Origin: Giardia intestinalis
Taxonomy: Eukaryota
Assembly (NCBI GenBank): GCA_000002435.2
Contig: CM018790.1
Direction: 5' to 3' (one strand)
DNA length: 64,000 nt
Position numbers and translations under genes: made by a program. Shown piece by piece: positions 20,382-45,800 of the stretch (positions are counted from its first letter, which is position 1; the number at the start of each line of letters is the position of its first letter). The notes below the pieces were generated by a model. It had not been told where the DNA came from. It did not search any database and was given only the letters and a program-made list of their open reading frames with translations.

Positions 20382-20388
20382 ATTTACT
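20382..20388 (-). promoter_or_regulatory. AGTAAAT poly(A)-signal motif overlapping the stop codon of the ankyrin/pseudokinase gene
   Basis: The + strand ATTTACT at 20382-20388 is AGTAAAT on the minus strand. The TAA within it (20384-20386) is the stop codon. Confidence 0.4.
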
Positions 20389-22600
20389 TCGTATTACTGC
20401 ATGGTACTGATCTCAAAAGAAGCGTGACGATGTGTTGTACCTTGACGAAGTCAACACGAGAGAATTGTCCTCTTCCACAGGCAGCTATCAAAAGAGAGGC
20501 AACACTGGCTGCATATTCTGGACCCTCGTGTTCCGCAATAAGACTAACAGCTTCCTTGTTCAGTGCAAAGGCAGACAACTCCAGAGCAGTCTCGCCAGCC
20601 ACAGAACACCGCCCTCCCTCATAAGGAAGTAACAAACATATGTGTTCAATGCACCCTACTTGCGACGCGTACATCAACGCTGTAATACCAGCGGGCGTGC
20701 ACCTGCCCGCCTCTCCCGCCTCGATCAACGCCTTGCACTCGTTCTGCAGGGTCTTACCAGATTGACAAACGCACATGAGAGATGTATTCTGTTCAGCATT
20801 TACCATGCCTGCTTCAATAGATAGCAAAGTAGTATACAAATTGACTAAAGCGTCTACACCCAAGAGGCACGCCTTTGTTAAAAGACCGCGGCGCGATGCG
20901 ATAATAAGAGCGGTGTCTCCAGTGAAAAGGGCATGAAACGAGGCCATGTGAAGTAAGCGACATGCATTTTTAGCCAGCTGAGCAAGTGCTTCGGGATCCT
21001 CCTCCGATTCCGCCATAACGAGCAGAGATTGTAGCATAGTCAGCCCAGTTTGGATTCGTACAAGTTCATGATTCGCTAGGTAGTTTGCGACAGCGCGATA
21101 CCCTCTCTGCATGGCGAAAGTTCCTGCAGTAGTACCATCCTCCGTCATTGTTCCAGCATATTGATCTACAAGCCCAATGACTGCTTGCTCCAGCCCGTTT
21201 AGTGCAGCATACATTAGAGGTGTATAGGCATGCTTTGAAGGTGGTAGAAAGACAGTGGTAGAGGGTGATCTTATAACAGGGCAGCGACGAGTGCCATAAT
21301 GAATGATCCGATTGATTGTCGACGCGGAAATATCTGTTAGATAAGTTGCACTGCTAGATAACCTAGATATGTCTATCAGTGCCTGTACAGCGCTGGTGCC
21401 GTTCAGCCAAAGGTAGCGGAGCGCATACTGGCCATCATTGTCCATGGCATTGAGTGTATCAAGGTTCAACACACAAACCAGATCAAGCCAGCAAGCAGTA
21501 CTTACACGAAGAAAACCATTGATGGCCAAGCGATGCAAGGCCGTCATATTCTTTTGGTCTCTGCGGAGACCTTCGATGTGCAGCAGGAGCCGTGCTTGAG
21601 CCAAATCGCAAGCTTCTAGGGCACGCATATATCTAGTCACACCTTTGCTATCTACTTCCAAGACACCCATTTGTACATCGAGCACAGGTTGCAATGCCGC
21701 TCGCACGGTGTCGTAAGCAGCAGAAAAGTCTATGCGATGGACTGCAAATGGATTGGAAAGCGCCCGAAGCAGGTTAAAAAACCAATCTATTTGCGAAGTA
21801 TTCACGTAATTGTACAGTAACTGCACGCTTGATGAGTTCAGACCTTTGGTTATTTTCTGAACAACCAGGGAATGGAGATAGTGAACCGTGGCATGAAACT
21901 CAGATACGGTGGGAAATTTTAAGGCGACCTTTCTATTGGCAGCTAAGAGCTCTAAGCACAGCATACCCACCTTATGGAGCAGGACCTGAAGTCCACTTGC
22001 ACTGTCCCGCCGGGGCTTTGGTGTACTACACTGACCAGATATGAATTGGCTGAACTTAGGTTCCAACTTAATATACCCGTTGGGGGTCAGCCAGATATTC
22101 GATGGTGTTAAACAATCTGAAAATATGTGCCAGGGAAAGTCTGGCCAAGAGTTACATGAGCGGAGGTAATCGCAAAGACTGAGTAGCTGGACTAAAACGG
22201 AAAGGATAAGGTAAACTGGAAAAGGTCGAGATGCTTTTTTTCGAGAGTGGGTCAGCAACAGGTCAGTGAGCCGCACTGATCCAGTAGGGATCCAAGATGC
22301 AAGCATGAGGGTGTGGAGATAGCGACACGAAGACACCTTAACTACTGCTGGGAGGACTCGTTGTACCACTCCCTCAGACACGGATTGCTTCTGGAAGCTT
22401 GCTGCGCCGCAAAGGGGGAGAGTGTAATGACTAAGTGTTAGTGTAAGGTGGTAAGTCTTGAGCAAGACGCGAATCCCGGCTAGCTGCTTCTTTGTAGATT
22501 GTCTGATAATATGAGAAATATAACGTGGAGACCCATTAACTGCGGATAGAGCGTAGGCCTCTAGCGGACCTGCAAACGCTACGAAAATGTGACGTGTCAC
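20384..22600 (-). CDS. NEK-like pseudokinase with C-terminal ankyrin repeats (protein 21.1-like); first ATG only at 22306
   Basis: Ankyrin repeats (TALMYASQVGCIEHICLLL, TPLMYAALNGLEQAVIGLV, DTALIIASRRGLL). Upstream is a degenerate kinase catalytic-loop / activation segment HIFSDCLTPSNIWLTPNGYIKLEPKFSQF, where HRDLKPENI..DG.IKLGDFG would be expected. Kinase-like similarity continues upstream of the first ATG (codon 99 of the track ORF, which begins with GTG). Confidence 0.6.
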   Translation of the reverse strand: MTRHIFVAFAGPLEAYALSAVNGSPRYISHIIRQSTKKQLAGIRVLLKTYHLTLTLSHYTLPLCGAASFQKQSVSEGVVQRVLPAVVKVSSCRYLHTLMLASWIPTGSVRLTDLLLTHSRKKASRPFPVYLILSVLVQLLSLCDYLRSCNSWPDFPWHIFSDCLTPSNIWLTPNGYIKLEPKFSQFISGQCSTPKPRRDSASGLQVLLHKVGMLCLELLAANRKVALKFPTVSEFHATVHYLHSLVVQKITKGLNSSSVQLLYNYVNTSQIDWFFNLLRALSNPFAVHRIDFSAAYDTVRAALQPVLDVQMGVLEVDSKGVTRYMRALEACDLAQARLLLHIEGLRRDQKNMTALHRLAINGFLRVSTACWLDLVCVLNLDTLNAMDNDGQYALRYLWLNGTSAVQALIDISRLSSSATYLTDISASTINRIIHYGTRRCPVIRSPSTTVFLPPSKHAYTPLMYAALNGLEQAVIGLVDQYAGTMTEDGTTAGTFAMQRGYRAVANYLANHELVRIQTGLTMLQSLLVMAESEEDPEALAQLAKNACRLLHMASFHALFTGDTALIIASRRGLLTKACLLGVDALVNLYTTLLSIEAGMVNAEQNTSLMCVCQSGKTLQNECKALIEAGEAGRCTPAGITALMYASQVGCIEHICLLLPYEGGRCSVAGETALELSAFALNKEAVSLIAEHEGPEYAASVASLLIAACGRGQFSRVDFVKVQHIVTLLLRSVPCSNTK

Positions 22601-26896: not shown

Positions 26897-27757
26897 ATGT
26901 GTACGTGCTTTTCCAATATTAGGTCCATCACCCCTGGCCCAGGAAGCTATGAGGCAACACCGTTCAGCGTCTACAAGCCTCGCACACCGTCGGTTCACAT
27001 CTCTACGCGGCTGAAGAGTGGCAAGCGCGATGGCCCGGGGCCGGGAAGATATGATTTCAACGAGCTTTCTTCTTCGTTTCTGTCGGGTATACAGAGCCAC
27101 AATTCCTCTCAGCAACTAACCAAGGCTCAGCTGACCCGAGCTCATCTGTCAGACTTTGGAGGAACGCAGTCAGGGATGCTAAGCGCGGATAGCTCTTACC
27201 TGAGTGCTACAATGAGTAGATCGACCACCCCGATCCTCATATACTCAGAGGACATGCAGACAACGGCCCAGACCGAACTAAGCAGGAGCAGCACCCACAC
27301 TAAGGCACCAGCACACTCCTTTGGCGCTTGTGGTCGCTCAGCAGGGGGGCCGTTTGACGTTAGATACGCCATGGATTTCTCGAACATAGGACCGAAATAC
27401 ACCCCCAAAACGTCCCTTACTAAGACGGCAAGCCCTGCTATACACATCGGGTCGCGGCTTCCAGACCTTTCCGCGCGGTCTAATACCCCCGGGCCTGGGA
27501 GTTACTCCCTAGACAGAAATCCGGACTTTTCGGTACAATCTAGAGCAGATATCATTAGGAGGCGTGCCCTTCTTGCATCTCGCTCCAAGAGACAGGCTGA
27601 TAACGTTGCTAGTTCAGTGTCTGAGAAGTTTATACCAGAAGCCTCCAAGCCGCGAAGCTACTGTCCTCATCTCTCAACAACTATACTACCAAGCGTCCGA
27701 GGCCCTGCATTTACCCTTTCCAGTCGCACGCCCCTGCGGATTTTCGGCCAGTATTAG
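26897..27757 (+). CDS. SHIPPO / STPGR (sperm-tail PG-rich repeat) protein, 286 aa
   Basis: Repeated PGPGxY motifs (TPGPGSYEAT, GPGPGRYDF, TPGPGSYSLD) and ...FS..R repeat ends, typical of the ODF3/SHIPPO family. ATG at 26897. Confidence 0.7.
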   Translation: MCTCFSNIRSITPGPGSYEATPFSVYKPRTPSVHISTRLKSGKRDGPGPGRYDFNELSSSFLSGIQSHNSSQQLTKAQLTRAHLSDFGGTQSGMLSADSSYLSATMSRSTTPILIYSEDMQTTAQTELSRSSTHTKAPAHSFGACGRSAGGPFDVRYAMDFSNIGPKYTPKTSLTKTASPAIHIGSRLPDLSARSNTPGPGSYSLDRNPDFSVQSRADIIRRRALLASRSKRQADNVASSVSEKFIPEASKPRSYCPHLSTTILPSVRGPAFTLSSRTPLRIFGQY

Positions 27758-27769
27758 CCGCAGAGTTAA

Positions 27770-29260
27770 AAATCCACGCCCACTTTCTTTGATTGTATTA
27801 AGGGCTCTACCCCAGGCCCTGGATCGTATGATGTCCCGGTACTGGATTTTATACAGCCATCTACCCCATCATTTAGCATAGGCTTGAAGCACCCTACTCC
27901 AAGGGATTTGACTCCGGGCCCAGGAACATACAACGTAAACCAGGGGGACGAAGCAATGCGTAAGGGCCCCAAGAACCTCACTATTGGAGTTAAGCTACCA
28001 GACCATCACATACAGGAGACTCCAGGACCAGGGACCTATGAAACCCAACGGGCTTTTGAGGTAAAGCCAAAGGCACTCTCGTTCTCCGACAGGCATGCAG
28101 ATCCTTATGAGCAAGAACGCCTAATGACGCCGAGTCCGACACGTTACAACCCGTCTTTATCCCTGAAGCAGGTTCAGGATAAGGTTTTGCCATGCACGTT
28201 CAAGTCCAGCGTGACTCCACGAGGCCCATTTGATGATCTGGCCCACACGCCAGGTCCGTCAGCATACTCTGTCAATGACAGCATGACAACACCTCGTGCA
28301 AGCAGGGCTTGTATCGGAAATAAGCAACCGGTTAGCTATGACAATCAGGTCCCTGGCCCTGGTTCATATGATAATGTTATGAAAGAGTACATAGAGATGA
28401 CGACACCATCATCTCCTGCTTTCACTCTGCACGGGAAGCTTGAACACGGCGGACCATTTGACGTTCATGCGGTGAGGGAATATGCCTCCGTAGGCCCAGG
28501 AACATACACACTGGACAAGCTCGTTAGCAACGGCGGACTTATTTTGCCCCACGCTGCCAATCTTTCTGGTAGACATCCCGATCCTCTCGAAAGGGAAAAA
28601 CAGCTTACGCCAGGCCCGGGCTCATATTTCAAGGAAGGCGCTGGCGCACAGACAACTCCGCAATACGATCCGCTGGGGACCAAGGGATGCAAATTTGGAG
28701 TACGGCCTGCAGATCTTACCTTCATCTCATCACAGTCTGGATTAGGAACACATGATAATACTGCCGTGGGTCCAGGGACTTACACACCTAGATCAGTGAC
28801 TCCGCGCACTCCTGGGGGCGTACTGAGCTTCAAGCACGCAAATCCTTTACGAACCCTTGGAGATGGGCCTGGTAAATATGATATTAGCAGCGCAGTTACC
28901 GCAACGCTTCCCTCGTCACCGCAGCCGACTATGCATAACGGTCGGGCCAACGACTTAAACAGCCCATTTACAACCCGCTTTGATTGCAGCTGCCTAGGTG
29001 GGCCTGGTACATATGCTTTGGGGGAGAAGCTTCGAGGTAGTAGGCTTCGGGGTGCGCGCGCACTGATCTCTAGCGACACTTCACGAGGGTCTTCTAGTGG
29101 TAGGGTAGGCCCATCAATTGGGATACGATATACACGGATACGGCAGCAGAATACTCCTGGGCCGGGTGAGTATGACATATCTTCAGCGCCGCGTGGACCC
29201 TCGTTCTCATTTAGATCCCGCACCCCTTTGGCGGTAGGAACAGGTGAGCCTATGAAGTAA
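27770..29260 (+). CDS. Second SHIPPO / STPGR repeat protein, in the SAME frame as the preceding one (open from 27770; first ATG 27956; track start 27884 is TTG)
   Basis: At least 10 PGPGxY repeats (STPGPGSYDV, TPGPGTYNV, TPGPGTYET, VPGPGSYDN, GPGTYTL, TPGPGSYFK, GPGTYTP, GPGKYDI, GPGTYAL, TPGPGEYDI). The frame is separated from the upstream SHIPPO ORF only by TAG (27755-27757) and TAA (27767-27769). Confidence 0.65.
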   Translation, partial: KSTPTFFDCIKGSTPGPGSYDVPVLDFIQPSTPSFSIGLKHPTPRDLTPGPGTYNVNQGDEAMRKGPKNLTIGVKLPDHHIQETPGPGTYETQRAFEVKPKALSFSDRHADPYEQERLMTPSPTRYNPSLSLKQVQDKVLPCTFKSSVTPRGPFDDLAHTPGPSAYSVNDSMTTPRASRACIGNKQPVSYDNQVPGPGSYDNVMKEYIEMTTPSSPAFTLHGKLEHGGPFDVHAVREYASVGPGTYTLDKLVSNGGLILPHAANLSGRHPDPLEREKQLTPGPGSYFKEGAGAQTTPQYDPLGTKGCKFGVRPADLTFISSQSGLGTHDNTAVGPGTYTPRSVTPRTPGGVLSFKHANPLRTLGDGPGKYDISSAVTATLPSSPQPTMHNGRANDLNSPFTTRFDCSCLGGPGTYALGEKLRGSRLRGARALISSDTSRGSSSGRVGPSIGIRYTRIRQQNTPGPGEYDISSAPRGPSFSFRSRTPLAVGTGEPMK

Positions 29261-29278
29261 TACTGCTACTCCCTTCTG

Positions 29279-32200
29279 TCAATCCTCTATCTCCATGACC
29301 CCATCATACCACTGCTTCGGTGGAAGGTTCTTGGAGTATGGGTTGCCAAATGCTATTTTCAAACCCTCAAGCTTTATTCTAACAGTCTTACTAATGGCCT
29401 TTCCGACCTGCCCAACCGATTGGTAGACGTCTATAACGTTGCAGAATTCGCTGGAGTAGAATAGCAGACTGTCTGTCAGCTCAATAAAGGCAAGCATTAA
29501 GTCATCGCGCAACGACAGGGTAGAGAGCCACTCAGCCTTCTCCGCAAACCACTTTTGGATGTCTAGTACGATATAGTTAAAAACGTTCTTGAAATACGTG
29601 CCTGCAAGCTGTTCCGACCACCCATATACACGGGCAAGGCTGGTATAGAGCGAAAATGTACTTAGCGCCAGCTTCAACACCTCAGTACGCAGAAGAGCGC
29701 TTCTCTCTGGCCTTTTTATATAATCTTTTCCGACAGCAGGAGCTCCCGCAGCTTGCTCCAAACTGGCCACTTCACTTGTGTAATTTTCAGGGAGGACTCC
29801 GTAGATGTTCCCTCCAACAATTACATAATCCTTGAACACCTTGCAGGTAAATGCCAGGAGATTGCAACCTGCAAACACCTCATTAGTGAGAAGGTGCAAG
29901 TGGTCCTTGAGGGCTAGGCGCTTCTGCTGAATGAAGAAGGCATCGAGGGGCTTTGCAGGGGGGTCCGAGAGGGCCTTGATGTGAGCAGTCACGATGCTGT
30001 CGAGGGTCATGGTTGCATTAACGAGAATGTTAAAGACACGCAAAAAAGCATAAATATCGTCGCCTTCCACCTTGATTTCAAAGGAGTCCGGATTGATGAC
30101 CTTTGGAAAGACCTTCTCCAGCGTATATGTGCACCCGCAGTTAGCAACAAAGATCTGCCACATGCGCTCGTCACTCACTGCATTGCTTATTCCGTCAATT
30201 ATCAGGTCTGTATGTATGTTCCCATGTATATAGGACTGCAGGAAGTACTTTCGAAGTTCTGGATTCAGCGACAGCTTCTTGGTACGGAGGGCATTGACAA
30301 CTATCGTGAGAGCAACCTCGTGATATTGTGAGCTATTAAATAAGCAGAGAAGCATTGACTGGGAGTTGATCAATCGGTGGTAGCTTCCAACAATGGCCTC
30401 CGTAAAGAGAGCAATCTCGTCAGACCTCACCATTTCGCCCATAAATAGGCCAACTTCCTGTATGTCCCTAGTGATCTTTACAAAAATGGGCTCTGGTGCC
30501 GCAGACTGCATCTGGGTGGGGTCTATGATTTTGCCATCTTCCTGAGGTTTGACAGATTCGGAAACCTTGGTGCTAGGGAGCCGCAACATGAAAGACACAG
30601 ATTCCTTGATGTAAGCGTCTATCGTGGTGCATGTGTTGAAGAATCCATATGCTCTTCCACGCTCTAAACTTACAGATAGAATAGTTGCAGCGGCGTGTCG
30701 AATGTATCTGAAGAACTCAATTGCATAGTTAAATAACTGTAAGTTGTCCTTACCGTGCACTTTTGCCAACTCTGTGCTCCCCTCTGGTATCTCATTAAAG
30801 AGAGAAAAGTTATGTGTGTCTTTTAGAAGATTCATAATTGCAAATGTAAGCCCCTTTACCTTACGAGTGGTGTCAGAAATGTAGAATAAGTGATCGCGAA
30901 CGAGGTGATGCGCTGGATGGTTAAGCACGCAAGCGGTGATGCCTAGAAGTAACTTGGACATTTGTATGTATTCGGGGTTAAGCTGAAAGAACGAAGGGCT
31001 TCCCTTCTTGTCAGCAGTTGTGATTTGCTGTTGGAGCATGGCCTGGTCGATTCCCTCTATCCGTATCAGTTTCGTCTCACTCTCTTGTGCTGTGGCTGCA
31101 CCCTGTGCGGCATCAGCACCTTTGGCATCAGAAGACGGTCTCTCCGAGACTTGCTTTTGTGATTGGTGAAGGTTGGTCAGCATAGCTGTTTCATAGAGCT
31201 CTCGGGGCGGTACTGTATTAAAAGCGGTGTTGGCAAGAGCAAACAAGCAAGACTCCAGATTGAGCACCATGCGGCGGCTCAAGTAGAACGGCACGTGAGG
31301 CTTTGTATATGACTGGTAAAACTCATCGAGCACCTGGAGCGAGGGAATAGACTTGAAGCTGTTCCTGATGTTTATGCTATTTCCCTGTAGCATGTTCGCC
31401 TTCAAGACCTGGGCACAGATGTCGAGATAGACGTGAATGGCCCCTGACAGAAGTGTAAACGCGTTTATGTATGCTGCACGGAACAAGATCTCTCTTTTTT
31501 CCTTGGTTCTTATCGTCTTAAGCCGGGTCCTAGAGGCCTCTAAGACAGACTCGAGCTTGCTCTGGGGATAGTCAGTTATGGAAAGAGTAGACATGATATG
31601 GATGTCCAGATTCTTCACCTTTGTGAGCCGCGCTTGTAATTCTCGTATGTTTTGTCCGGGGAGGCGATTAAGGTAGTATTTGTCGATTGCGTTGGAGCGG
31701 TCTCCCTCTGCCTCCATGCCCATGGATATAATAGAGGTGTAGTCGCTCAGCAGCGAAGGTGCATCATTGACTATCCGACTGCAATCTACTATAGTATTTT
31801 GGACAACTCTACGCAAGTCAATCTTAGGTTCAGAAGATGACTCCGTTAATATGCGATAAAAATTGTGATTGGTTGCAGTGGACGGGTTCTTGAGTACATT
31901 AAACGTATTGAAATCGAAAAAGAATAGCAGAGCTAAGGCTAGGCATAGATACGGCTTCAAAATAGTTGCCTCAGAGTTAATGTAGAAGAACAGGAACGTC
32001 TTGTAGTGTGAGTAAAGAAATGGAAGCCCCCTATAGTCCTTCGGCTTGCTCCAGTGGGCCTCGAAGGCCTTATCTGTCCCTCTAAAGAAAGAGTAAGGCC
32101 GAAGCTGCTCGACAGCGAACGCTTGGCGATATTCTTCAGTGAGCCTGTCCCTCCTAACCGGTTGCTCCTCAAGGATATGCTTGTCCTTGTCTGTGGATAT

Positions 32201-34903
32201 GGCCCCGGAAACTCCCAGTTCTAATACATTGAAGTAATCCATCATGACTTCACCAAAGCTGAGTACAATGAAACAGCTCAAGATCTGCTTATACATTTCC
32301 AAATTTTTGCTCACGAAAGTAAAGTCTAAGTGTGTGAGAATGGTCTTGATGGATCCGATCATGAGAGGAAGAAAATCTGGGGTAATGGCCGATGAAAGAG
32401 CAGAGACAATGATCCGTAGAGACTCGTTGTGAAGACCGATTACTACGTTACTGCAGAGGGACTTTACGGGCAGGTCGTATGTGTCACTTGCAATGGTTTT
32501 GTAAACAAAGGCCAGGCCTGAAACTATTCGTTCAAAGGGTACATAACTCCGTATAAGGTCCAGCTTAAAATAGTTGAAATCTGTCTCGCAGAGAACCCCA
32601 GAGGAAAGCACAGATCGCGGATGCTCTCCTGCGCCTGTGGGTTGGTCCACCCCTGGAAGGATGTTAAACGACGCACAGTAGTATGATGTGAGCATGAGAG
32701 CGAGGTTCTCTACAAACGCACAATAGAGAATGCGGGAATGGAACCTTCTGAGCAGGAATCTCTCCTCGGGGACTTTCCCTTCCTTTATCTCGATTGGCTT
32801 TGCCTCTATCTCAAGGTAAGGGAGGGCTTCCAGGGTCAGAAGATTGTAAATGTCTATTCCATAGAGGATTTTGGAGATATCACCGAGGACACTGTTGAGC
32901 AGATTGTGCTTTAATAGGACGAGATAGATCTGGAGAAGGAGCGCCAGCGTCGCCACAGAGATGGTAAACACCTTCTTTGATTGCCCATCTGGTTTGTGCA
33001 GCAGGGCATTGAGCAGGTTCTGCAGGGGCTCAGACTTCTTTCGTGGATTCCCTACGTCGTCGATCCAGACCTGAAGCACCGCAAGCTCTACAGTTGTGGA
33101 AGCAGTGGATCCCACGCCGGATGCTCCTGCAGAACCAACAATATGGGGGTTAAAGAAAAAGTGGTAGTAGAAGAGAGTAAGTGCAGCCGACGCCCTATCC
33201 AAGTCGTTCCTTCGGTTCATCAGGCCATAGCCGACCCGCGAATCAAAGTATGCATCTCCCAGGTGTGAATTGAGAGCCGAGAGAAAGGCGTGGACTAAAA
33301 ACGAATGAAAAACAGGAGCTCCCTCTGTTAAAATAGAAAAATCCCTTGTGGCAAGTGCAAACTCAGTCAATTTCAATCCTGTCCTACTGTCTTGATAGAG
33401 AAATTTCTCTAAAACTCCTATGTTTGCCAGGATGTCCTTATTGAAGTCTGTCTTTACGATCATTAACAAGGCTCCAGGTCTTTTTGAGAAATAGGAAGCG
33501 CGGCAGAGGCGCGCTAATGCCTTGTGATATGTGGAAACATAGGACTTGAAGGTGTCCAGGCCTTCAAATGGAACGGCGACATTGACCTTAGCTAGAGAAT
33601 GGATTGTCGGGTCCTGCATGATGCAAGTACTATACAAAAGCCCTGTGGTCTTAATGGATATGTTAGCGACTCCCTCATTGTGGTCCGACATGCCAAACTC
33701 GTCTCCTTCTGTTTGCGTCCTTGCAGTATCGCCGGGACCCAGTTCATCGTTGGCAGAGACTGGTGCACTGGCAGGTAGTTTCCTCTGCTCCTTCAGACGC
33801 TCCTCAAACCGTTCTATGTTGGCTAAAAGATGCTTAGGACAAGTGATTTTTCCATCAGATTGAATGGTGATAGCGTGATATACATCTGGATAAGTGTTGT
33901 TTGATATGAAAAGACGCATGGACGTGAGAAACTGCGGTTCGAGTGGTAGCTTGATTCGCTCCTTGATCTTGGCATTGAAGAAGGGGTGAGAAGCTAATTC
34001 ATTCCAAGTGATCCTCTTGAATGGGAAGGGTTGTAGCAGCTTGTAGAGCAAGTCCTTAAAATTAGCGCTTAAGGGGAAGCCTCGATAACTAGATGGGATG
34101 AGGTTGTTGAACAGATGCTCCTCGCCGTGTTGAATGACTCGAAAAGCGTACCTTTGGTAGTCACGTATTCGAACTGTTATGCGTGTTTGTTGCTTGTCTG
34201 GGCTGTCCTCAGAGTCACTGTCATTATACACCAGGTTCTCGGCAGAAGACTTGTCCATAAACTGTTCAAACGGGTAACGCCGAAATAGTATCCTATAGAG
34301 CAGGCAACCAAAGGAGAACAGGTCTGAAGAGATACTATGAGAGCCGTCGGGCAGAAGGGTTTCAGGAGCTTTGTGGAGATAACCATTGGACTTAACGTGC
34401 TTATCAATAACCTCGATGGTGAGAGGCTGATGTTTGACAATTTGGCTTGCAAACTCGAAGTCGGCCAGCTTTATGTTACCGTCAATATCAACAAGGATGT
34501 TACTACCCAGCAGTTCATTGAATGTTATGCCCTTTAAGTGAAGAAAATGAAGGGCGTCTCGGATGTCACTTGCAAACGACTCCACAGAGACCTCGGGCCA
34601 GTAGTGATACTCTCTGCTCAGTAGAGACTCTAAAGACCCGCCCTCGCAGAGCTCCGTTATTAGCCAGATTTCGTCGTTGCTCTGGTACCACGATATGAAG
34701 CGTAGAATATTTGGGTGGACATTCGAGCTGAGGAATGTTGCTTCGACTTGAACCTTCGTCTTTAGCGCCTGAATGCGTGTAGGAGTTTGCTTTGCAGCCA
34801 CATATTCTAGAGATTGCGGCTGCCGGGCACGATAGATAATTGATCCGCTATTCTTTCCTCGGCCAATCTCCTCATAGGTCTTGAACTTGCTGGCGGAGTT
34901 CAT
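29279..34903 (-). CDS. ULK4: ULK4-like pseudokinase: N-terminal degenerate kinase domain plus about 1550 aa helical-repeat region
   Basis: Matches between this protein's N-terminus and human ULK4:
- FKTYEEIGRGKNSGSIIYRAR ~ FILYEEIGRGSKTVVYKGR
- HPNILRFISWYQSNDEIWLITELCEGGSL ~ [29 protein letters not shown]
- SISSDLFSFGCLLYRILFRRYPF ~ [23 protein letters not shown]
- KRITWNELASHPFF ~ KRLTWTRLLQHSFW
The catalytic loop reads HLKGITFNELLGSN, not HRDLKPEN. DFG is replaced by DFE. Confidence 0.7.
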   Translation of the reverse strand: MNSASKFKTYEEIGRGKNSGSIIYRARQPQSLEYVAAKQTPTRIQALKTKVQVEATFLSSNVHPNILRFISWYQSNDEIWLITELCEGGSLESLLSREYHYWPEVSVESFASDIRDALHFLHLKGITFNELLGSNILVDIDGNIKLADFEFASQIVKHQPLTIEVIDKHVKSNGYLHKAPETLLPDGSHSISSDLFSFGCLLYRILFRRYPFEQFMDKSSAENLVYNDSDSEDSPDKQQTRITVRIRDYQRYAFRVIQHGEEHLFNNLIPSSYRGFPLSANFKDLLYKLLQPFPFKRITWNELASHPFFNAKIKERIKLPLEPQFLTSMRLFISNNTYPDVYHAITIQSDGKITCPKHLLANIERFEERLKEQRKLPASAPVSANDELGPGDTARTQTEGDEFGMSDHNEGVANISIKTTGLLYSTCIMQDPTIHSLAKVNVAVPFEGLDTFKSYVSTYHKALARLCRASYFSKRPGALLMIVKTDFNKDILANIGVLEKFLYQDSRTGLKLTEFALATRDFSILTEGAPVFHSFLVHAFLSALNSHLGDAYFDSRVGYGLMNRRNDLDRASAALTLFYYHFFFNPHIVGSAGASGVGSTASTTVELAVLQVWIDDVGNPRKKSEPLQNLLNALLHKPDGQSKKVFTISVATLALLLQIYLVLLKHNLLNSVLGDISKILYGIDIYNLLTLEALPYLEIEAKPIEIKEGKVPEERFLLRRFHSRILYCAFVENLALMLTSYYCASFNILPGVDQPTGAGEHPRSVLSSGVLCETDFNYFKLDLIRSYVPFERIVSGLAFVYKTIASDTYDLPVKSLCSNVVIGLHNESLRIIVSALSSAITPDFLPLMIGSIKTILTHLDFTFVSKNLEMYKQILSCFIVLSFGEVMMDYFNVLELGVSGAISTDKDKHILEEQPVRRDRLTEEYRQAFAVEQLRPYSFFRGTDKAFEAHWSKPKDYRGLPFLYSHYKTFLFFYINSEATILKPYLCLALALLFFFDFNTFNVLKNPSTATNHNFYRILTESSSEPKIDLRRVVQNTIVDCSRIVNDAPSLLSDYTSIISMGMEAEGDRSNAIDKYYLNRLPGQNIRELQARLTKVKNLDIHIMSTLSITDYPQSKLESVLEASRTRLKTIRTKEKREILFRAAYINAFTLLSGAIHVYLDICAQVLKANMLQGNSINIRNSFKSIPSLQVLDEFYQSYTKPHVPFYLSRRMVLNLESCLFALANTAFNTVPPRELYETAMLTNLHQSQKQVSERPSSDAKGADAAQGAATAQESETKLIRIEGIDQAMLQQQITTADKKGSPSFFQLNPEYIQMSKLLLGITACVLNHPAHHLVRDHLFYISDTTRKVKGLTFAIMNLLKDTHNFSLFNEIPEGSTELAKVHGKDNLQLFNYAIEFFRYIRHAAATILSVSLERGRAYGFFNTCTTIDAYIKESVSFMLRLPSTKVSESVKPQEDGKIIDPTQMQSAAPEPIFVKITRDIQEVGLFMGEMVRSDEIALFTEAIVGSYHRLINSQSMLLCLFNSSQYHEVALTIVVNALRTKKLSLNPELRKYFLQSYIHGNIHTDLIIDGISNAVSDERMWQIFVANCGCTYTLEKVFPKVINPDSFEIKVEGDDIYAFLRVFNILVNATMTLDSIVTAHIKALSDPPAKPLDAFFIQQKRLALKDHLHLLTNEVFAGCNLLAFTCKVFKDYVIVGGNIYGVLPENYTSEVASLEQAAGAPAVGKDYIKRPERSALLRTEVLKLALSTFSLYTSLARVYGWSEQLAGTYFKNVFNYIVLDIQKWFAEKAEWLSTLSLRDDLMLAFIELTDSLLFYSSEFCNVIDVYQSVGQVGKAISKTVRIKLEGLKIAFGNPYSKNLPPKQWYDGVMEIED

Positions 34904-37499: not shown

Positions 37500-39044
37500 A
37501 TGGCAACAGCCCTCATCTTAGCAGGAGGGAAGGGGACACGTCTCAGACCAATGACAGACAGCACGCCCAAGCCGCTGCTGCGAACCCCACACCGGACAAT
37601 CCTCGAAACCCAGATCCAGAGCCTCTACGAGCACGGTGTGCGCTCTGTGTATGTCCTCATTCATCAGTCTCAGCATGACTCTTACAAGGCGTGCGTTGAC
37701 AGCCTTGATGTAAGGCACCACATGCAGATAGTCTTGGTTACAGAGCACGAGTGGTTGGGAACAGCAGGCGCTGTTGTTAGCTGTTTGTGGGCCTACCCGG
37801 AGCTTTCCAAGCTGACACACATCCTCATCATGAACGGAGACGTTGTCTGCCGCTATCCCTTCTCATCGTTGATCTCTACCTACAAGTCGCAGAACTGCGC
37901 GTGCCTACTAACACACTTCTCCACTCGGGACCCATCGCAGTATGGGCTGCTGAGGCTGACCAGAGAAAACGGGCCGTCGGCTCTGTCACTGTCTGAATTA
38001 TCAGATCGGCCCTCACTGCCTTCCTCCTCCGCGGGCTCTGAGCTGAGCGAGTCCTTATCCGCTGGAGACGGGCTGCTATCGTCCTTCGGCCCTGCTAGCT
38101 CTGCCGAATCAGCAGACATCCTATTCGAAGATCCCACCGACGCCAGCGCCGAGAGTGACAGCGTGGCATCGGTCTCCTCAGCGGTCGATGCACGCCAAGT
38201 AATGAGGATAAGAGATTATAACCGAATCCACCGCGGTGGAGCAAGCATCGCAAGGGTCTCCACGCCACACCTCCCCAGCTCTCCGGCGGGACTGCGGGTC
38301 AACAGCCGTCGAAGCGATAGAACTAGGAGCAGGTCCAGAGATAGGCCCAGAGGGGGTGTGCAGATGGGATCCCTGGGACCGCAGCTGGACTTGTCGTACG
38401 GGCAGATATCTCTGGTGGACTGCTCAAACAGACACTTGCGCTCCCTCCCCACTCAGACCGCCTCCAGAACCTCCACACGATCATCCTCGGGCGCCACCAT
38501 CCGTCTGGGCAGGGTGTCAGCGTTCATAGAAAAGCCTTGTTTTGTGGCAGTGGAGAGCCAGCAGGACAGAGCTGGCCACGGAGTCTCGTATGCAAATGCC
38601 GGGATCTATGTCATCAACCCCGCTCTCCTGCTGGCGTTCCCGGTCCCCTGCTCTATGGAGCAGGGAGTCTTTCCCATCCTTCTGTCACGGAAGCTGGACG
38701 TGCTGTCGTTCTACATCGGCACGGAGAAGACGTGGAGTGACATGGGGACCGTCGCGGGATTTATAAGGGGGTGTCAGCTGTTGAACGGAGTCCCGGCGTT
38801 TGACCAGGGCTCAAACTCATCCACACGGCTGGGAAGTGAGGCACACAAGTCTATGTCAAAGAATGGCCTTCGGGGCAATGTCACAGGCGACGATGTGCGT
38901 ATCGCGAGGGGGGCGCACGTCGCCAACTGCGTAATATACGACAATACAGTCGTGCCGCCCGGAGTGCATCTGGAGGGATGCATTGTTTGTTCAGGGGAAG
39001 GGCTGGCGCAGGGCAAGCACTATTACAACAAAATCATACCTTAG
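37500..39044 (+). CDS. Sugar-1-phosphate nucleotidyltransferase (GDP-mannose pyrophosphorylase-like, NTP_transferase + left-handed beta-helix) with about 180-aa Ser/Arg-rich insertion
   Basis: N-terminal ALILAGGKGTRLRPMTDSTPKPLL (compare [24 protein letters not shown]). GTAGAV and a VSAFIEKP...NAGIYVINPALL...FPILLSRKLDVLSFYIGTEKTWSDMGT core. C-terminal LbH repeats VRIARGAHVANCVIYDNTVVPPGVHLEGCIV. Residues 150-340 are low-complexity S/A/R-rich, including RSDRTRSRSRDRPRGG. The ATG at 37500 is directly preceded by TATAAAAG. Confidence 0.7.
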   Translation: MATALILAGGKGTRLRPMTDSTPKPLLRTPHRTILETQIQSLYEHGVRSVYVLIHQSQHDSYKACVDSLDVRHHMQIVLVTEHEWLGTAGAVVSCLWAYPELSKLTHILIMNGDVVCRYPFSSLISTYKSQNCACLLTHFSTRDPSQYGLLRLTRENGPSALSLSELSDRPSLPSSSAGSELSESLSAGDGLLSSFGPASSAESADILFEDPTDASAESDSVASVSSAVDARQVMRIRDYNRIHRGGASIARVSTPHLPSSPAGLRVNSRRSDRTRSRSRDRPRGGVQMGSLGPQLDLSYGQISLVDCSNRHLRSLPTQTASRTSTRSSSGATIRLGRVSAFIEKPCFVAVESQQDRAGHGVSYANAGIYVINPALLLAFPVPCSMEQGVFPILLSRKLDVLSFYIGTEKTWSDMGTVAGFIRGCQLLNGVPAFDQGSNSSTRLGSEAHKSMSKNGLRGNVTGDDVRIARGAHVANCVIYDNTVVPPGVHLEGCIVCSGEGLAQGKHYYNKIIP

Positions 39045-39840
39045 GCGCACTCGAGAGCGTCAGTTTCGTTCGTATCCTCGTTAGGTGAGTATCTACGACA
39101 TTGAAGATATCTTCCGCCACCTGCTCGGCCGTGGTCTCGACGAATGGGCAGTCAATGCCACCCTTTTCCCAGAGGCCGGACAAAAAGTTGCCAGGGTATA
39201 TTTCCTCTACGTGTGCATGCGGTAAGTCATGTCGAGCACAGTCCACCAGGCCACGGAGAGCAAACTTGGCCACACAGTACGGGCAGCAGTCGACGGTTCC
39301 TTCCCAACTAAGGGGATCAGAGCCGACGGCCACATAACAGCAGTACCTGTTCCCCGAAAGAGTGGGGAGATACCGGAGGCTTTGCTGCATAGGCAGGACG
39401 TGCGCAGAAATGGCATCCAGTATGTCCTGCGGTGTCGTCTCCCCCACAGAGCGGCATGCAAGGGCTCCTGTACAGGTGACAACAGCAATGAGAATGCCCT
39501 TGCCACGCTGCTGTGCAGGTGATGGACGGCTGGTGCCTGCATACCATGCCTCGGCCTCGTCCAGGCTTGAGCACGCAATACCCAACTCACCCAGTAAACG
39601 CTCATAGGTAAGCCAGAACTGGTCTGCAGACGGGTCTCCACGTATGATGCGCAGCCTCTTGTAGCAGGAAGCAGTGGAGGCGGGGGCCCTTTCCGCATCT
39701 TCAAGAAGCGCATCCAAAGACCCGGTATCCGCGCGATCGCGCACCTGTGCATGCACAGAGAACCCTTCGAGGAGAAGCTTGCAGGTTACAGCAACGCCCA
39801 GGGTACCGTTGGCGCCCAGGACCAGAACAAATAGAGACAT
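39034..39840 (-). CDS. Short-chain dehydrogenase/reductase-type NAD(P)-binding oxidoreductase (268 aa)
   Basis: N-terminal Rossmann motif VLVLGANGTLGVAV. Active-site YxxxK as YCVAKFALRGL. The 3' end overlaps the convergent nucleotidyltransferase gene by 11 nt. The ATG at 39840 is 32 nt from the ATG of the divergent giant gene. Confidence 0.55.
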   Translation of the reverse strand: MSLFVLVLGANGTLGVAVTCKLLLEGFSVHAQVRDRADTGSLDALLEDAERAPASTASCYKRLRIIRGDPSADQFWLTYERLLGELGIACSSLDEAEAWYAGTSRPSPAQQRGKGILIAVVTCTGALACRSVGETTPQDILDAISAHVLPMQQSLRYLPTLSGNRYCCYVAVGSDPLSWEGTVDCCPYCVAKFALRGLVDCARHDLPHAHVEEIYPGNFLSGLWEKGGIDCPFVETTAEQVAEDIFNVVDTHLTRIRTKLTLSSAPKV

Positions 39841-39872
39841 TTCCCACTCAAAAAAGAGGCGACCGGGACTCG

Positions 39873-42800
39873 ATGCACACAGCGAGGCGCGTCGGCGAGC
39901 TGCTCAATGTCTTCTACTTGCTAGAGGATCCCCGGAGCGCAGCATATGGCCGCACCTCACCCACTACACTTACTCCACCGGCAGGTATCCAATGCTCCGA
40001 CAGCCAGATCCTCACAAGGGGCATTCTGAACTTCCAGGGCGTCCTGGAGAGGCTCCGCATTGCATGCGACTCTGAATACAGCCTTTACAGCCCCGTCACA
40101 GCTTTGTTGGAAGGCCAGGAGCACTTTCGCCCCCTTGGAGCAAAGCAGCAGGGTTCCCGGTCGGACGCTAGTCACGAGCGGATAGGACGGCCTCCCAGGC
40201 GGACTACTAATTACGTTAGATTTTACGACTGGCATGTCTGCTCCTGCATATTGTCACCGTTAGAATTGAATACTTTCCAGCGAGCTTTACGGGTGCTGCT
40301 GGAGGTCAAGCAGCCAATAAAGATCACATCAGATATAAGTGTCAATCCAGGAGAGTGGATGCACCCCTATGGAAGCAGCAAACCTCTTCACATCATAGCA
40401 AATATGGGTAGACAGCGTTCTTCTGATGCAACACTCTCTCCATTACTCACCCTATCATATCAACAGGATGCATACACAGCGGTAGAAGAGGGTCCAGAGC
40501 CAGTAAAAGCGTCTTCTCTTTTGCCTGCCGTAACTACTTGGTTGAAACATCCTCCAGCACTATCTCAACAGTCATCCCACTCACTAGGTTCGGCAGAAGC
40601 ACTTTCTAATACAGGACTACTCAGTGGCTACTTTATAGGCAGTTTTCTCTCTCAGCCACTACAAAGGAATAAACTACTGAGCACAAGGCAGGCAAATGCA
40701 GGGACAGCTAGCGGTACTGCAGACGCACAATTACAGCCTGCAGAAGATTGCAATAGGATGAGCGGTGATGTATCATTGTATGCCTACGAGCCTCTGTGTA
40801 CTAGTACTTATTCGCAGTTTGGAGAGCCAACGAGTCTATCAGACACGTTTTGCAGACAGCCTTCTGATAACTTTAATCAACCTGATAGTAAGACCGAGGA
40901 GGAGGAGCTCACTCCAGAGCTCTCATCTAGAAACATATGCACATTGCAGACGGCAACTGCCGATGGAATAGCCATATTGGGTGAATATTTTAAGAACGAG
41001 CGGCTTTGGAAACAACAAACAGCGGCTTTCCTAGCTAAACGCGCGGTTATGTCTATCGAGGATAGGCTTCGACAAAGAAATCGCCTAAAGTCTTCCCCTA
41101 AGACCGAAGCTGTCCTCATAGAGCAATTTTGGTCGACCGTTACTAAGGCTATCTCGCTGAGGGCTACAGATGATATAAATAACGAGGAAATTATGTGCCT
41201 TGTGCGCGATTCTGATGATAATTCGCAGAACTATGGGCACAGTAATCACCCACCAGAGATAGAGCACCGAGCTGCAGCTGACAATACTATAGAGCTCTCT
41301 GAGCTGGCTCCGTTTGCAGACCCTCACTCTCCCGTGCCTCCGTTTGAGCCACTGGAGGTTGCTGGGCCCAAACACATAGACTGTGAGTCTCTTTATTGCA
41401 TGGATGGAAACCTTATCCAAGGAGTGGGCGCTATAAGTGCATCTATGCCTGCCAAGCCTACCATGCAAATAGGGTCGGTTGACCATACAGACACGCCTCA
41501 CCTGTGTCCACTTTATCAAAATGTGCGGCAAATATTCAGGCTTTTCAGTGCAGACCTATCTGTGTCTCTTAACCTTTTGCAGATTCTATTCACTAATCTT
41601 ATTCTAAAGTTCCTCACGCTTTCTCAACTGCTGAGTCTTTCTACTTCTACATGCTGGTATCACACTGTCACATTTGTAATAAGAACAGGTCGAATTATGG
41701 CCGTTTCGATCCGTCCTCAACAAGGAAGTAAGTTCTTGTTTAGAGCCAGAAAGACCACACATAGGCAATCCTTTTTACAACTACGGTCCTCCTACAAGTA
41801 CCTTCCAATGGATCTGGCGCTGTTGAATGCCAGCTACCAAGTCCATAAGCAACAAAAGACACCACAGGAAGGCTTTCTGGCTCGCTTAGAGATCACCAGA
41901 GCTGCCGTTTGCCGTTTGCTATACCTGCACCCTTCAGCTCAATACACACCAGAGACCCATTCGATAACACAGCTCTTTATGCTGTCGGACCAAATCTCGG
42001 CACACGGTCTCATTCTAGAAACCCGCTTCTTTATGGAGCATTCACTTCTCTTGAATAACAACACCGAGCTTTCCACGTTAACAGAGGTAGACGTTCTCAT
42101 CAAGTTCTTGACAGAGTACTTGATGTCTGAGCCGCTCTTTGACTTTGGTTCATTTAACTCTGACATCCTATTGTCCGAATACTATCTCAAGCATCAATTA
42201 CCAGGCAAAGAGAGCTGCTCCTTGACTAGTTCACATTCCCGTAGTGCTTATGACAGCACTTTAGTAAAGCCATTAGCACTAGAGCAAGTATCTGAGAAGA
42301 AAGATAACCGAGTGTATGATCAACGGGACCATCTTAACCACGAAGCTGTCATGCTCTATAATCAGCTCTTAAGCATATATAAAGACACACTTCCATTATT
42401 CTTTACCAAAGCGGACGATTCGAAAAGCCTGCCTAAAAGGCAAACCGAGCTAGACATGGTAGTACCCTACCTGTACTACCACCCCAATATTAGGCACCTT
42501 TTGCCATACCAGGCGCACATGCTCCTGGGCGTTTCTGCTTCCTATATTACAGGGAACAATTCCTTTATTATACGTGCGCCGAGAAAGGTTGGTGTACTGC
42601 GGTTTGTTATATCAACGTTTCTAACACGGTCAGCTGCTCTGCAAAATCTCAGGTATGCGTGCGCAGGGATGCATCTTGAGGGTAAGGGTGTTGCAGGCCT
42701 CAAAGTGCCCAATCAGATTGCGCCTTCCGCAACGAAAAAAGACTATAGCTCTGCTTCACTAGACGGCATGCTAAGGAGAGAGCAAGTGCATCTGGTACTT

Positions 42801-45800
42801 TGCGAAGAAGGAAAGGTAGAAGGGTTTGTTAACATGTACATCAGATTGCTCTTCGGAGCGCGTGTGTATGACGTCGTTTCCAGAGAAATGTTTGGCCAAA
42901 ACGTGGACCAATTCTTACTTGATATGAAATCACGGAAGCTTTCGCAAGAGCATACACATGTAGATGATGTATCCTCTGTAGCAGACCATTGCTCGGGGCA
43001 GTCTAGCACATTCTATCCTAGCTCTGTGTCTCCCATCAACTTTATGGATATTCTTGGCCAGAAGATGCTGCTGGATGATATGGAGTCTACTCTTTTTATT
43101 ACTATTCTTTCCTGCAATCCGCATCGGAACAGCGTTCCAGTAGCAGAAATCACGAAAGGTACAGCGTTTGGGCCTCTTAAGCCGCGCTCAAGCAACAGCA
43201 ATGTGTTTAGATGCATGAGTTCGAGCGACTGCAACCCTGCAACTATCAGCTTGCCATATGCACGCCGCTGTGAGGCTTCACACAAGCCTTCTCGTGCGAA
43301 TGACGCGTCTTATTTGGGGATGGAGTTGCTAGACACCAATCCCGTCGACTCAGAACGCCATGTACGGTGTGTATCCTATGTTATTGGGCCTGAAGCCGAA
43401 AACCAAAAGACTATCAGTGTTCCGTCGCGCATTGTGTTCAACCTCTTCGATCAACTGCACGGATTTCAGCAGAGCTCGAACCAGGTAGATCAGCCTACCT
43501 CTATCAAAGTATTTGTAGTAACATACGATGCGTTACATTATAACTATGCCTATACAAATGGACAGATCCTATCTCTTATTAAAGAGGCTAAGCGATTAGA
43601 CACCCTGGTGGTCCACAGGATTAAGGACCATGCACCACATTTGCCAATACACATGTACAAGGCCGATTTCATCGTCAGTGTTGAGAGTGCATATCTTCTC
43701 AACAAGGGTGACGATCTGCGACAAGAGGAGGAGACCAGGAAAAAGTTGCTCCAGCTCCAGAGTGCGCACTCCACAACTCTCACAGATAAGGCCTCTATCA
43801 AGCAGCTACAGACCCACGATAAGCGTGCCACAAGTAGCGTTACAATCTATTCAAGTGCGCCTTCACATGAACGGATTTCGCAGCCATCGTGTACGGGAGA
43901 CCAGACGGTCCTGTCAGAGCAAAACGATCCTTCTCCCCTAGGCACAGACCGGCAAAGTGAGCAGAGCTACATTTTATATGACACAGTTAGTGCGCCCAGC
44001 AGTAGTTTGACGCGTGTGATTGAGGATACCCCTGTGCACCTACTCTTCTTCGATCTCGTAGCTTTAAACTATGAGCCCTCCACTCCTGTGCTCACTAGCA
44101 TCTATGACATGAAACTGCTGGATAAGGTCCTTACTGATCCCGCAATTGCACTACTCTTCTTGGACGCCTCTAAGAAGGGTTCTTGTAGTATCTACCTCCA
44201 CGATATTCACGGCTATGGCCCACAGATCGCTTATCGCTTCCCCAATCTTCAACATATTCCGCTGGTTGTTCCGAGAAGAGACAGACAGTATGTGCAGGAT
44301 CTCTCACCATCAGACTATTTCGCACACTTTCCGCTACATCAGCAAGTGGTCGATGTTTGCAACCCATACTCTTTCGACGTCATTGCACCGAGCAAGCGTG
44401 GTACTACTCTACAATCAGTGACCACGTTCGGTGGCCCATCTTATTCTTACCCTTTATCTTACCCTTTAAGGAATTTCTCATCAAAGTTCAGAACCTCTGA
44501 TCAATCTATTTCAGACGACACACTTAAGCTTGTCACTAAGTTCATTTCATTTGATAGCTTCATAACTGATTTAAATGCAAGCTATAACGCACTTCTTGTT
44601 CAGCACCAGATAGTAACTGCCAAGCACGGAAGCACAAGAACCAGGCACAGTACGAATTTCTGGTCACATATGGGGGCATATATGAATCCCGTGGTTCTCA
44701 CTACTACGATGAATGTTAGCTCGCTAGATAGTGTTGCATCCATTCTTGCACGGTCACACAGTATAGCATTTGGCCGTGGTTCTGAGGGAGCTTGGCTACG
44801 GATGATCGACTCAGATCTATGGGATAGCTATGCGTATCCGCATACATTCAGTAGCATATGTAACAGTATGATACGCCACAATGCTAGGTTTCCTTCAGCA
44901 TATAAAGACTCTTTGGGATCCTCCTTGGATATGACAGTTGTCTCCGATATTCGGCGATCCTTCCCCGAGAAGTATCTCAATGCTATGATATCTCACCTGG
45001 AGCATTTACAGCAGCTTTGGGTGCGTACAGATGGAAGTCTTTTTCTCATTCCTGCAGCACCGCGGGCAGCTCCACGCTCCAGCGTGCTTAGCAATTATCC
45101 ATCCGATCAGTCAACAGCACAGACCCTTTCTCACAACATGTCTATCCCCTTTTCTGTCTATGACAAGCTCTTTATAGATTTCCAAAAGACCGTAGAGACA
45201 AATCACAATCAGAAATCTCTCTGTTTTGTTTCGTCTGGAGACTCATGGAGCAACATCTCACGTTCTGTAGTGTATCAAACGCGGTCTATTTCACTCCTAG
45301 TTGCGATAGAGCTTATTGACATCTTCAAGCGCCTCCTGTATAGGCAGACACCACATGGTAAGCTCAACAATCATACGCCTAACCCCATGCTTCAAGCCAG
45401 CTTTGAGGCAGGATCTTTTTCTGCAAAGGATCGAGTAAGCAAACCTGTGCTTGATATGCTTGCGAGTCAGTTGAATGAAACGCTTGTCAGGATCGAGACG
45501 ACTGCCAAAAGTCTGCTCTTCTCTGCATATCATTCGTATCACACGAGCATGTGCTGTACCACGCAGCAACTCACATGCCTCCAGCCAATGGCTAAGCTTG
45601 AGAAGATGGACCGATTGCCGAACTTAGTGGTTTTCTCATTACTGAATACAATTCGGCTTACGATCATCCTTCCCCGCTACACGCAATTGGTGTGTGCTCA
45701 AGCCAGGCCAAAATTGTATGGTGATCCATGCATCTGTCCGCACGCTACCAGTACGTTTGCTCGCATCAAGAATAAGCTGTCCTATGCAGTGGAGCTGAAG

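Follow-up and report, generated by a model that had tools for sequence, protein, structure and literature searches.

Two tandem genes for SHIPPO/STPGR-repeat proteins lie on the plus strand of a 64,000-nucleotide (nt) stretch of Giardia DNA, contig CM018790.1 of assembly GCA_000002435.2, which is referred to here as the window. The window has a G+C content of 46-51%, in keeping with Giardia, and was assigned to Giardia duodenalis assemblage A, WB-like, from exact and near-exact database matches. The upstream open reading frame (ORF), ORF1, and the downstream one, ORF2, both match the Pfam SHIPPO-rpt domain PF07004 (48.8 bits, E 9e-13 for ORF1; 114.3 bits, E 1e-33 for ORF2; cut-off 20 bits). 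The repeats run throughout both proteins and the same domain is found in all of their database relatives, which bears out the proposal of a first-pass annotation that the two belong to one repeat family. ORF1 is conventional in having an ordinary ATG start with AATAAACT before it. ORF2 is known in the databases only from an internal position: counted from M27956, its product is XP_037901735.1 (GL50803_0014861), a 434-amino-acid (aa) 'hypothetical protein'. These are two separate tandem genes, and it seems likely that the ORF2 mRNA originates from an AT-rich element between them and that its translation begins at the ACG codon at 27776.

The junction between the two ORFs reads as it had been described. 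ORF1 ends in RIFGQY-TAG (27755-27757), the codons CCG CAG AGT (PQS) follow, a TAA closes the frame at 27767-27769, and the same frame is then open to the TAA at 29258-29260. Past the stops, no in-frame ATG occurs before 27956, which lies 186 nt beyond the TAA. It had also been supposed that a SHIPPO repeat crosses both stops, and this does not hold. The end of ORF1 aligns with the C terminus of ORF2, and the beginning of ORF2 aligns with the N terminus of ORF1. In a BLASTP comparison, residues 3-64 of ORF1 pair without gaps with residues 5-66 of ORF2 (counted from K27770; E 1e-8), and the C termini also pair, RGPAFTLSSRTPLRI of ORF1 with RGPSFSFRSRTPLAV of ORF2. Because N terminus aligns with N terminus and C terminus with C terminus, the alignments identify ORF1 and ORF2 as tandem paralogues, separate and ancient. 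On the same alignments, the junction reads as a native C terminus beside a native N terminus. The repeat appears continuous over the stops because each protein ends in a PxF(S/T)xxxR half-repeat and begins in a PGPGxY half.

The comparison covered orthologous loci from a second assemblage A isolate (L005, L008), the assemblage E strain P15 (L006, L007), assemblage B (L002) and two more divergent lineages obtained from public read assemblies, here called X (L003/L004) and Y (L001), with G. muris as the outgroup. Two ORFs are found in G. muris as well as in each of the five G. duodenalis lineages, and the two-gene arrangement is older than the split between these species. The ORF1 orthologues are 286-291 aa long in assemblages A, E and B and the two further lineages. 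The G. muris tandem pair adjoins PBDC1, has a TAG and a 25-nt spacer between genes whose frames differ, and includes an ORF1 counterpart of 440 aa. An exhaustive HMMER search identified the G. muris ORF2 orthologue as GMRT_15873, a protein of 518 aa that matches with E 6e-75 and residue 3 aligned to residue 3. The features of the locus are collected in Table 1.

Table 1. Features of the tandem SHIPPO-repeat locus and of a second gene in the window; A, B and E are assemblages, X and Y the two further lineages
Feature	Position	Strand	Description
ORF1	26897-27757	+	GL50803_9086 (GL50803_009086), 286 aa, SHIPPO/STPGR-repeat protein, upstream tandem paralogue
ORF1 stop	27755-27757	+	TAG in A and E, otherwise TAA (B, X, Y); follows ..FGQY at one aligned position across the five lineages
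Intergenic spacer CCGCAGAG	27758-27765	+	8 nt, non-coding
Initiator-like element TTAAAAAT	27766-27773	+	AT-rich; holds the 'second stop' TAA 27767-27769
ORF2 as proposed	27776-29260	+	GL50803_14861, 494 codons and stop, SHIPPO/STPGR-repeat protein, downstream tandem paralogue
Proposed ORF2 start ACG	27776-27778	+	Near-cognate; edge of conserved coding region
ATG-less coding segment	27776-27955	+	60 conserved codons, two SHIPPO repeats, absent from current gene model
Annotated WB start ATG	27956-27958	+	Probably internal Met; ATA in B, ACA in E
Ankyrin-repeat gene	20384-22600 (first ATG 22306)	minus	Probable second ATG-less start

The segment upstream of the annotated ORF2 start encodes the peptides GSTPGPGSYDVPVLDFIQPSTPSFSIGLK and DLTPGPGTYNVNQGDEAMR, and it evolves in the manner of a coding sequence. 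In pairwise comparisons of the five lineages, the ratio of nonsynonymous to synonymous divergence (dN/dS) over its 60 codons is 0.058-0.122, at a synonymous divergence (dS) of 0.57-2.25. This is indistinguishable from the values of 0.039-0.107 for the part of ORF2 from codon 116 to the end. Variable sites are distributed over codon positions 1, 2 and 3 as 18, 13 and 49, the frame holds no stop in any of the five lineages (the other two frames hold 3-5 stops each), and there are no indels among the lineages. These patterns indicate that the segment is protein-coding and under purifying selection like the rest of ORF2. The in-frame ATGs available downstream are found at codons 60 and 116 in assemblage A and lineage X, at codon 116 only in B and E, and at codons 60 and 169 in Y. 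The annotated proteins are 434 aa long in WB and 378 aa in GS and P15, the shorter form beginning at the codon 116 ATG. The gene models of GL50803_14861 and its orthologues are most likely short by 60-116 N-terminal residues. The first-pass annotation had treated a transcript 5' end shortly before 27956, or a lack of peptides from 27770-27955, as the sign of an ordinary tandem pair. That expectation points the wrong way: 27776-27955 is clearly coding from its dN/dS, and the ATG at 27956 is not conserved.

The place at which translation of ORF2 begins is narrowly bounded. An in-frame TAA lies two codons 5' of the ACG in A, E, B and X, and in Y a 1-nt indel lies just before the ACG. Since the frame is closed just upstream and the segment is coding, translation would have to begin within a few nt of 27776. 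The ACG is present in 10 of 10 loci from the five lineages. At the DNA level the start reads GAAAAA-ATG-AGC-ACC-ATA-TTC-GAC in G. muris versus TTAAAAATCC-ACG-CCC-ACT-TTC-TTT-GAT in G. duodenalis, and the corresponding protein N termini are MSTIFDSIRSDTPGPG in GMRT_15873 versus TPTFFDCIKGSTPGPG in ORF2. In an ungapped alignment of ten N termini, column 1 is Met in the G. muris ORF2, in both ORF1s and in two more distant homologues, P0164 and P0225 (MPTIFD...), and it is Thr, encoded by ACG, in all five G. duodenalis ORF2s. The ungapped N-terminal BLASTP alignment between the paralogues likewise pairs M1 of ORF1 with the ACG. Other near-cognate codons before the first PGPG are ATT 27803, which is CTC in B, and AAG 27806, which is conserved. 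AAG is generally the weakest near-cognate initiator. By this comparison no near-cognate codon other than the ACG is both strong and conserved in all lineages over the stretch from the stop to the first PGPG, and we infer that the ACG itself is read by the initiator tRNA.

The closest competitor is a set of routes by which the segment could be translated without decoding of the ACG, namely C-to-U editing of the codon to AUG, a start at a different near-cognate codon such as AAG 27806, or a bicistronic RNA on which ribosomes reinitiate after ORF1. The data leave some latitude for such routes in that they place the start of translation at or just after TTAAAAAT without identifying the codon. Against them, the ACG is the one good near-cognate codon that all lineages conserve after the in-frame stop and before the first PGPG, and it is the exact homologue of the ancestral ATG. 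Taken together these routes are unlikely. C-to-U editing of mRNAs is not known to us from Giardia.

The AT-rich element that precedes the ACG is kept as (A)TTAAAAA(T/G) in the five lineages, in the form TTAAAAAT in A, ATTAAAAAT in B, X and Y, and ATTAAAAAG in E, and the spacer adjoining it varies. The Giardia transcription-start consensus is AATTAAAAA, with AAATTAAAAAT among the commonest variants (PMC3792122), and the element before ORF2 matches both of these published forms. Most Giardia 5' untranslated regions (UTRs) are shorter than 20 nt (PMC3792122), and short leaders have been reported to be necessary for efficient translation (PMC1885649). In a survey of the window, most genes have an A/T-rich patch within ~10-20 nt of the ATG. 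The ATG at 27956 has no such patch and is preceded by CCAGGGGGACGAAGCA. A Logan contig, L009 (SRR26410988), spans 1607 nt corresponding to 27768-29375 and starts at the first A of the A-run; its library type is unestablished and it carries three indel errors. The 5' end of this contig resembles a transcript 5' end, which is a suggestive though weak indication. Contigs L010 and L011 held nothing informative on transcript ends. From the match and the conservation of the element, transcription of ORF2 would start within TTAAAAAT.

These features can be assembled into a simple proposal for how ORF2 is expressed. ORF1 ends at a normal stop, followed by an 8-nt non-coding spacer and then the initiator-type element TTAAAAAT, and the TAA within the element falls in the frame of ORF1 and ORF2 by chance. 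Transcription would begin in the A-run of TTAAAAAT and give a leader of roughly 4-8 nt, the small ribosomal subunit would be placed through cap proximity with no scanning, and initiation would occur at the ACG at 27776. The start codon would have changed from ATG to ACG before the assemblages diverged, with the protein kept intact. To our knowledge, Giardia has no eIF4G and shows little or no scanning. This view of Giardia translation draws on PMC3792122 and PMC1885649, and reportedly also has a basis in the work of Li and Wang from 2004.

Several points weigh against initiation at the ACG. The conservation of its third base is only mildly unusual, given that 13% of the four-fold-degenerate columns of this gene are invariant over the five lineages, as are 7 of 27 Thr columns. 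The case for the ACG thus rests on homology and selection and not on that codon alone. Neither a conserved RNA structure (z-score -0.75) nor any covarying pair turned up in the region after the ACG. Contig L009 could owe its 5' end to an accident of assembly, and a contig from a sister run, L010, crosses an intergenic region. No publication on non-AUG initiation of Giardia cellular mRNAs was found in the literature searched, and what argues for the ACG is comparative sequence evidence throughout.

Public predictions for orthologues of 27776-29260 show a different assignment of the start. In P0002, P0003, P0105 and P0117, bacterial-style gene callers have read GTG or TTG codons as Met, and the predicted lengths are 483, 441 and 458 aa. 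The initial 'M' of P0002 and P0003 was considered as an alternative ATG and rejected, as these are GTG codons picked by a bacterial-style gene caller. One GenBank entry, ESU36758.1 (458 aa), is labelled 'Superfamily I DNA helicase', though it is a SHIPPO-repeat protein.

Under the current annotation, translation of ORF2 would start only at internal ATGs (the one at 27956 in A and the one at codon 116 in B and E), and the 180 nt upstream would form a long 5' UTR conserved for a non-coding reason. The annotated lengths of 434 aa in WB and 378 aa in GS and P15 follow this model, and a few Giardia genes are reported to have 5' UTRs of 150-400 nt (PMC3792122). The conservation in the supposed leader is codon-periodic and frame-specific, however, with the 18/13/49 distribution, no stops and a dN/dS of ~0.1. 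Two canonical SHIPPO repeats are also encoded in the segment and align with homologues, out-of-frame ATGs lie ahead of the candidate ATGs in every lineage, and the candidate ATGs themselves differ between lineages. A long leader seems quite improbable on these grounds, more so than the routes that bypass the ACG.

The frames of the two genes relative to one another bear on any model that joins them. Expressed as (ACG minus ORF1 stop) mod 3, the relation takes the value 0 in A; E, X and G. muris have 1, and B and Y have 2. From the ORF1 stop to the TTAAAAA motif the spacer measures 8 nt in A, 10 nt in B and 9 nt in the other three lineages (E, X and Y), and lineage Y has one additional C after the motif. 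Because these indels are not multiples of three, the spacer is not translated, and frame sharing is confined to A because of a 1-nt difference in spacer length. The ORF1 stop is constant in position, and G. muris has its own stop at the equivalent position (..CIFDHI-TAG). The shared frame has a one-in-three prior and occurs in only one of the five lineages, and in assemblage A it is a matter of chance.

Programmed readthrough of both stops, TAG and TAA (in other strains, a frameshift), giving a long ORF1-ORF2 fusion isoform, is very improbable in view of this pattern. The assemblage A ORFs are indeed in one frame with only 3 sense codons between them, but the ribosome would have to pass two stops in succession. 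A relation of 0 is confined to A, and E, X, B, Y and G. muris have 1 or 2. The spacer has 1- and 2-nt indels and no coding pattern, with coding conservation starting only past TTAAAAAT, and the C terminus of ORF1 and the N terminus of ORF2 are homologous to native paralogue ends. Stop-codon readthrough, which had been offered as an explanation of the junction, is contradicted by the series of relations 0, 1, 1, 2 and 2 in A, E, X, B and Y.

Two further ways of bridging the stops were considered and rejected. Giardia introns carry a GTATGT-type 5' site and a CT(A/G)AC(A/C)CACAG-type 3' end. A candidate intron over the stops, GTATTA...AAG, has a length of 52 nt in A and 53 nt in both E and X, neither of which is a multiple of 3, and of 54 nt in B and in Y, and the Giardia 3' motif is absent in B and E. 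An alternative genetic code in which TAA and TAG specify Gln, as in hexamitid diplomonads, is excluded by stop-free ORFs of 1874 and 3609 codons and the standard code in Giardia duodenalis.

The weakest explanation, with next to no probability, is that a recent nonsense mutation divided one gene in two or that ORF2 is a decaying pseudogene with a lost start codon: family, strand and frame are all shared and ORF2 has no ATG at the homologous start, but the two-gene layout predates the split of G. muris and G. duodenalis, dN/dS in ORF2 is ~0.05-0.12 despite saturating synonymous divergence (dS up to ~2) with no stops in five lineages and one single-codon indel over 494 codons (in the second assemblage A isolate), which rules out a pseudogene, and GL50803_14861 is transcribed, as it is listed among experimentally derived 3' UTRs (PMC9014877 supplement). 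The first-pass annotation had put a recent nonsense split at the head of its list, but G. muris and each of the five G. duodenalis lineages have two genes, with the ORF1 stop at a constant position, which leaves no room for it. An assembly or sequencing error fares no better, as L005 and L008, which are independent assemblies of assemblage A, show the same junction and 85 blocks of the sequence collection index the 434-aa product. It is the option listed last, two genuine genes of which the second has a non-ATG start, that gains support from the comparative evidence.

The close spacing of the two genes has a possible consequence for the 3' end of the ORF1 mRNA. No canonical Giardia poly(A) signal, AGURAA (AGTAAA/AGTGAA), was found between the ORF1 stop and 27900. 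The nearest poly(A)-like match is AGTTAA at 27764, which has one mismatch and overlaps the initiator-like element of ORF2. The 3' end of the ORF1 mRNA may lie inside the ORF2 coding region.

A second gene in the window resembles ORF2 in the absence of an ATG at its conserved beginning. This ankyrin-repeat gene on the minus strand has 102 open codons 5' of its first ATG (22306), with a conserved N-terminal extension of 96 codons. The extension is conserved in B, X and Y (orthologous loci L001 2110-4371, L013 1501-3717 and L014 567-2810), with a dN/dS of 0.11-0.29 over codons 2-98 and a range of 0.11-0.36 also given for the extension, and the position of the first in-frame ATG differs in every lineage. 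The conserved region starts at GTG 22600 (GTG in A, B and X; CTG in Y), with a TAAAAT element 10-20 nt upstream of it. The assemblage B orthologue is described as 'partial' in GenBank and has Val as its first residue. This is probably a second ATG-less start, with GTG or CTG in place of ATG. Two such genes among the ~24 in the 64-kb window suggest that the phenomenon is not unique.

The neighbouring genes include those for a cytochrome b5, a DJ-1/PfpI protein and PBDC1, as well as a convergent 1874-aa gene with a protein-kinase Pfam domain in its orthologues. The convergent gene appears to be the entry GL50803_103838, 'ULK kinase', of the supplement table, and the gene order PBDC1, SHIPPO, SHIPPO, ULK kinase is common to A, E, B, X and Y. 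ORF2 and the convergent kinase gene (29279-34903, minus strand) have a stop-to-stop gap of 18 nt. The published table gives GL50803_14861 a 3' UTR of 2208 nt and GL50803_103838 one of 322 nt (PMC9014877 supplement). With 3' UTRs of these lengths the two mRNAs would overlap in antisense, unless the 2208-nt value is an artefact. Elsewhere in the window, the divergent pair 39034-39840 (minus strand) and 39873-50702 (plus strand, 3609 aa) has its ATGs 32 nt apart around one A-rich patch, CTCAAAAAAGAG. The arrangement at 39034-39905 fits a bidirectional promoter of the kind described for Giardia. The 75 open codons 5' of the 3609-aa ORF are a mere overlap with the antisense gene.

Literature searched by gene identifier gave no match and no localisation data for either SHIPPO gene, and the identifiers are absent from the supplements of transcription start site sequencing (TSS-seq) studies. 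Other members of the family offer some cellular context. The Giardia SHIPPO proteins DAP9148 and DAP103164 are found at the ventral disc, axonemes and median body (bioRxiv 10.1101/361105). They share the SHIPPO/STPGR (sperm-tail PG-rich repeat, ODF3/CIMAP1) family with ORF1 and ORF2, and GL50803_9086 and GL50803_14861 are different proteins from these.

Cellular genes with an exclusive, conserved near-cognate start are known in other eukaryotes, including eIF4G2/DAP5/NAT1, which uses GUG, and Arabidopsis AGAMOUS, which uses ACG. As in those cases, the near-cognate codon of ORF2 is conserved at the 5' edge of the coding region, with no upstream in-frame AUG and with AUG in homologues. The eIF4G2 and AGAMOUS starts involve scanning of a long leader, Kozak context and sometimes a downstream hairpin. 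Unlike these, the ORF2 codon would have only ~4-8 nt between it and the predicted 5' end of its mRNA, in an organism whose mRNAs are near-leaderless, and the search for structure downstream of the codon found none. The locus also resembles the AT-rich initiator (Inr) promoters of Giardia (Holberton & Marshall, AATTAAAAA; Tolba et al. 2013, PMC3792122) in having (A)TTAAAAAT directly upstream of the conserved coding sequence of ORF2. It differs from the usual Inr genes of Giardia in that ACG, not ATG, comes after the element. A UUG start has been proposed for the Giardiavirus capsid (PMC8230311). This offers a precedent for a non-AUG start by Giardia ribosomes, in a viral setting driven by an IRES (internal ribosome entry site), unlike the capped, near-leaderless mRNA of cellular ORF2. 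On the comparative evidence, ORF2 would be a further example of a known mechanism, apparently undescribed in Giardia cellular genes.

The shared frame of the two ORFs is ordinary, and it is the missing ATG that is unusual. The 60-116 residues that the gene models most likely lack include two SHIPPO repeats, and the gap has practical consequences for tagging constructs, for knock-downs and for the databases used in proteomics. With a second case present in the same window, a genome-wide comparative screen would seem worthwhile. A broader reading can be offered tentatively, and is at present somewhat more doubtful than not: the choice of start in Giardia may depend mainly on cap-adjacent position, such that ACG, GUG and CUG could serve as sole, stable starts and a noticeable fraction of genes could have no AUG start, with N termini that are cut short in the annotation. 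If the reading of ORF2 is true, its ACG would be a natural, conserved non-AUG start in a eukaryote whose mRNAs are near-leaderless, and would provide a direct handle on start-codon choice.

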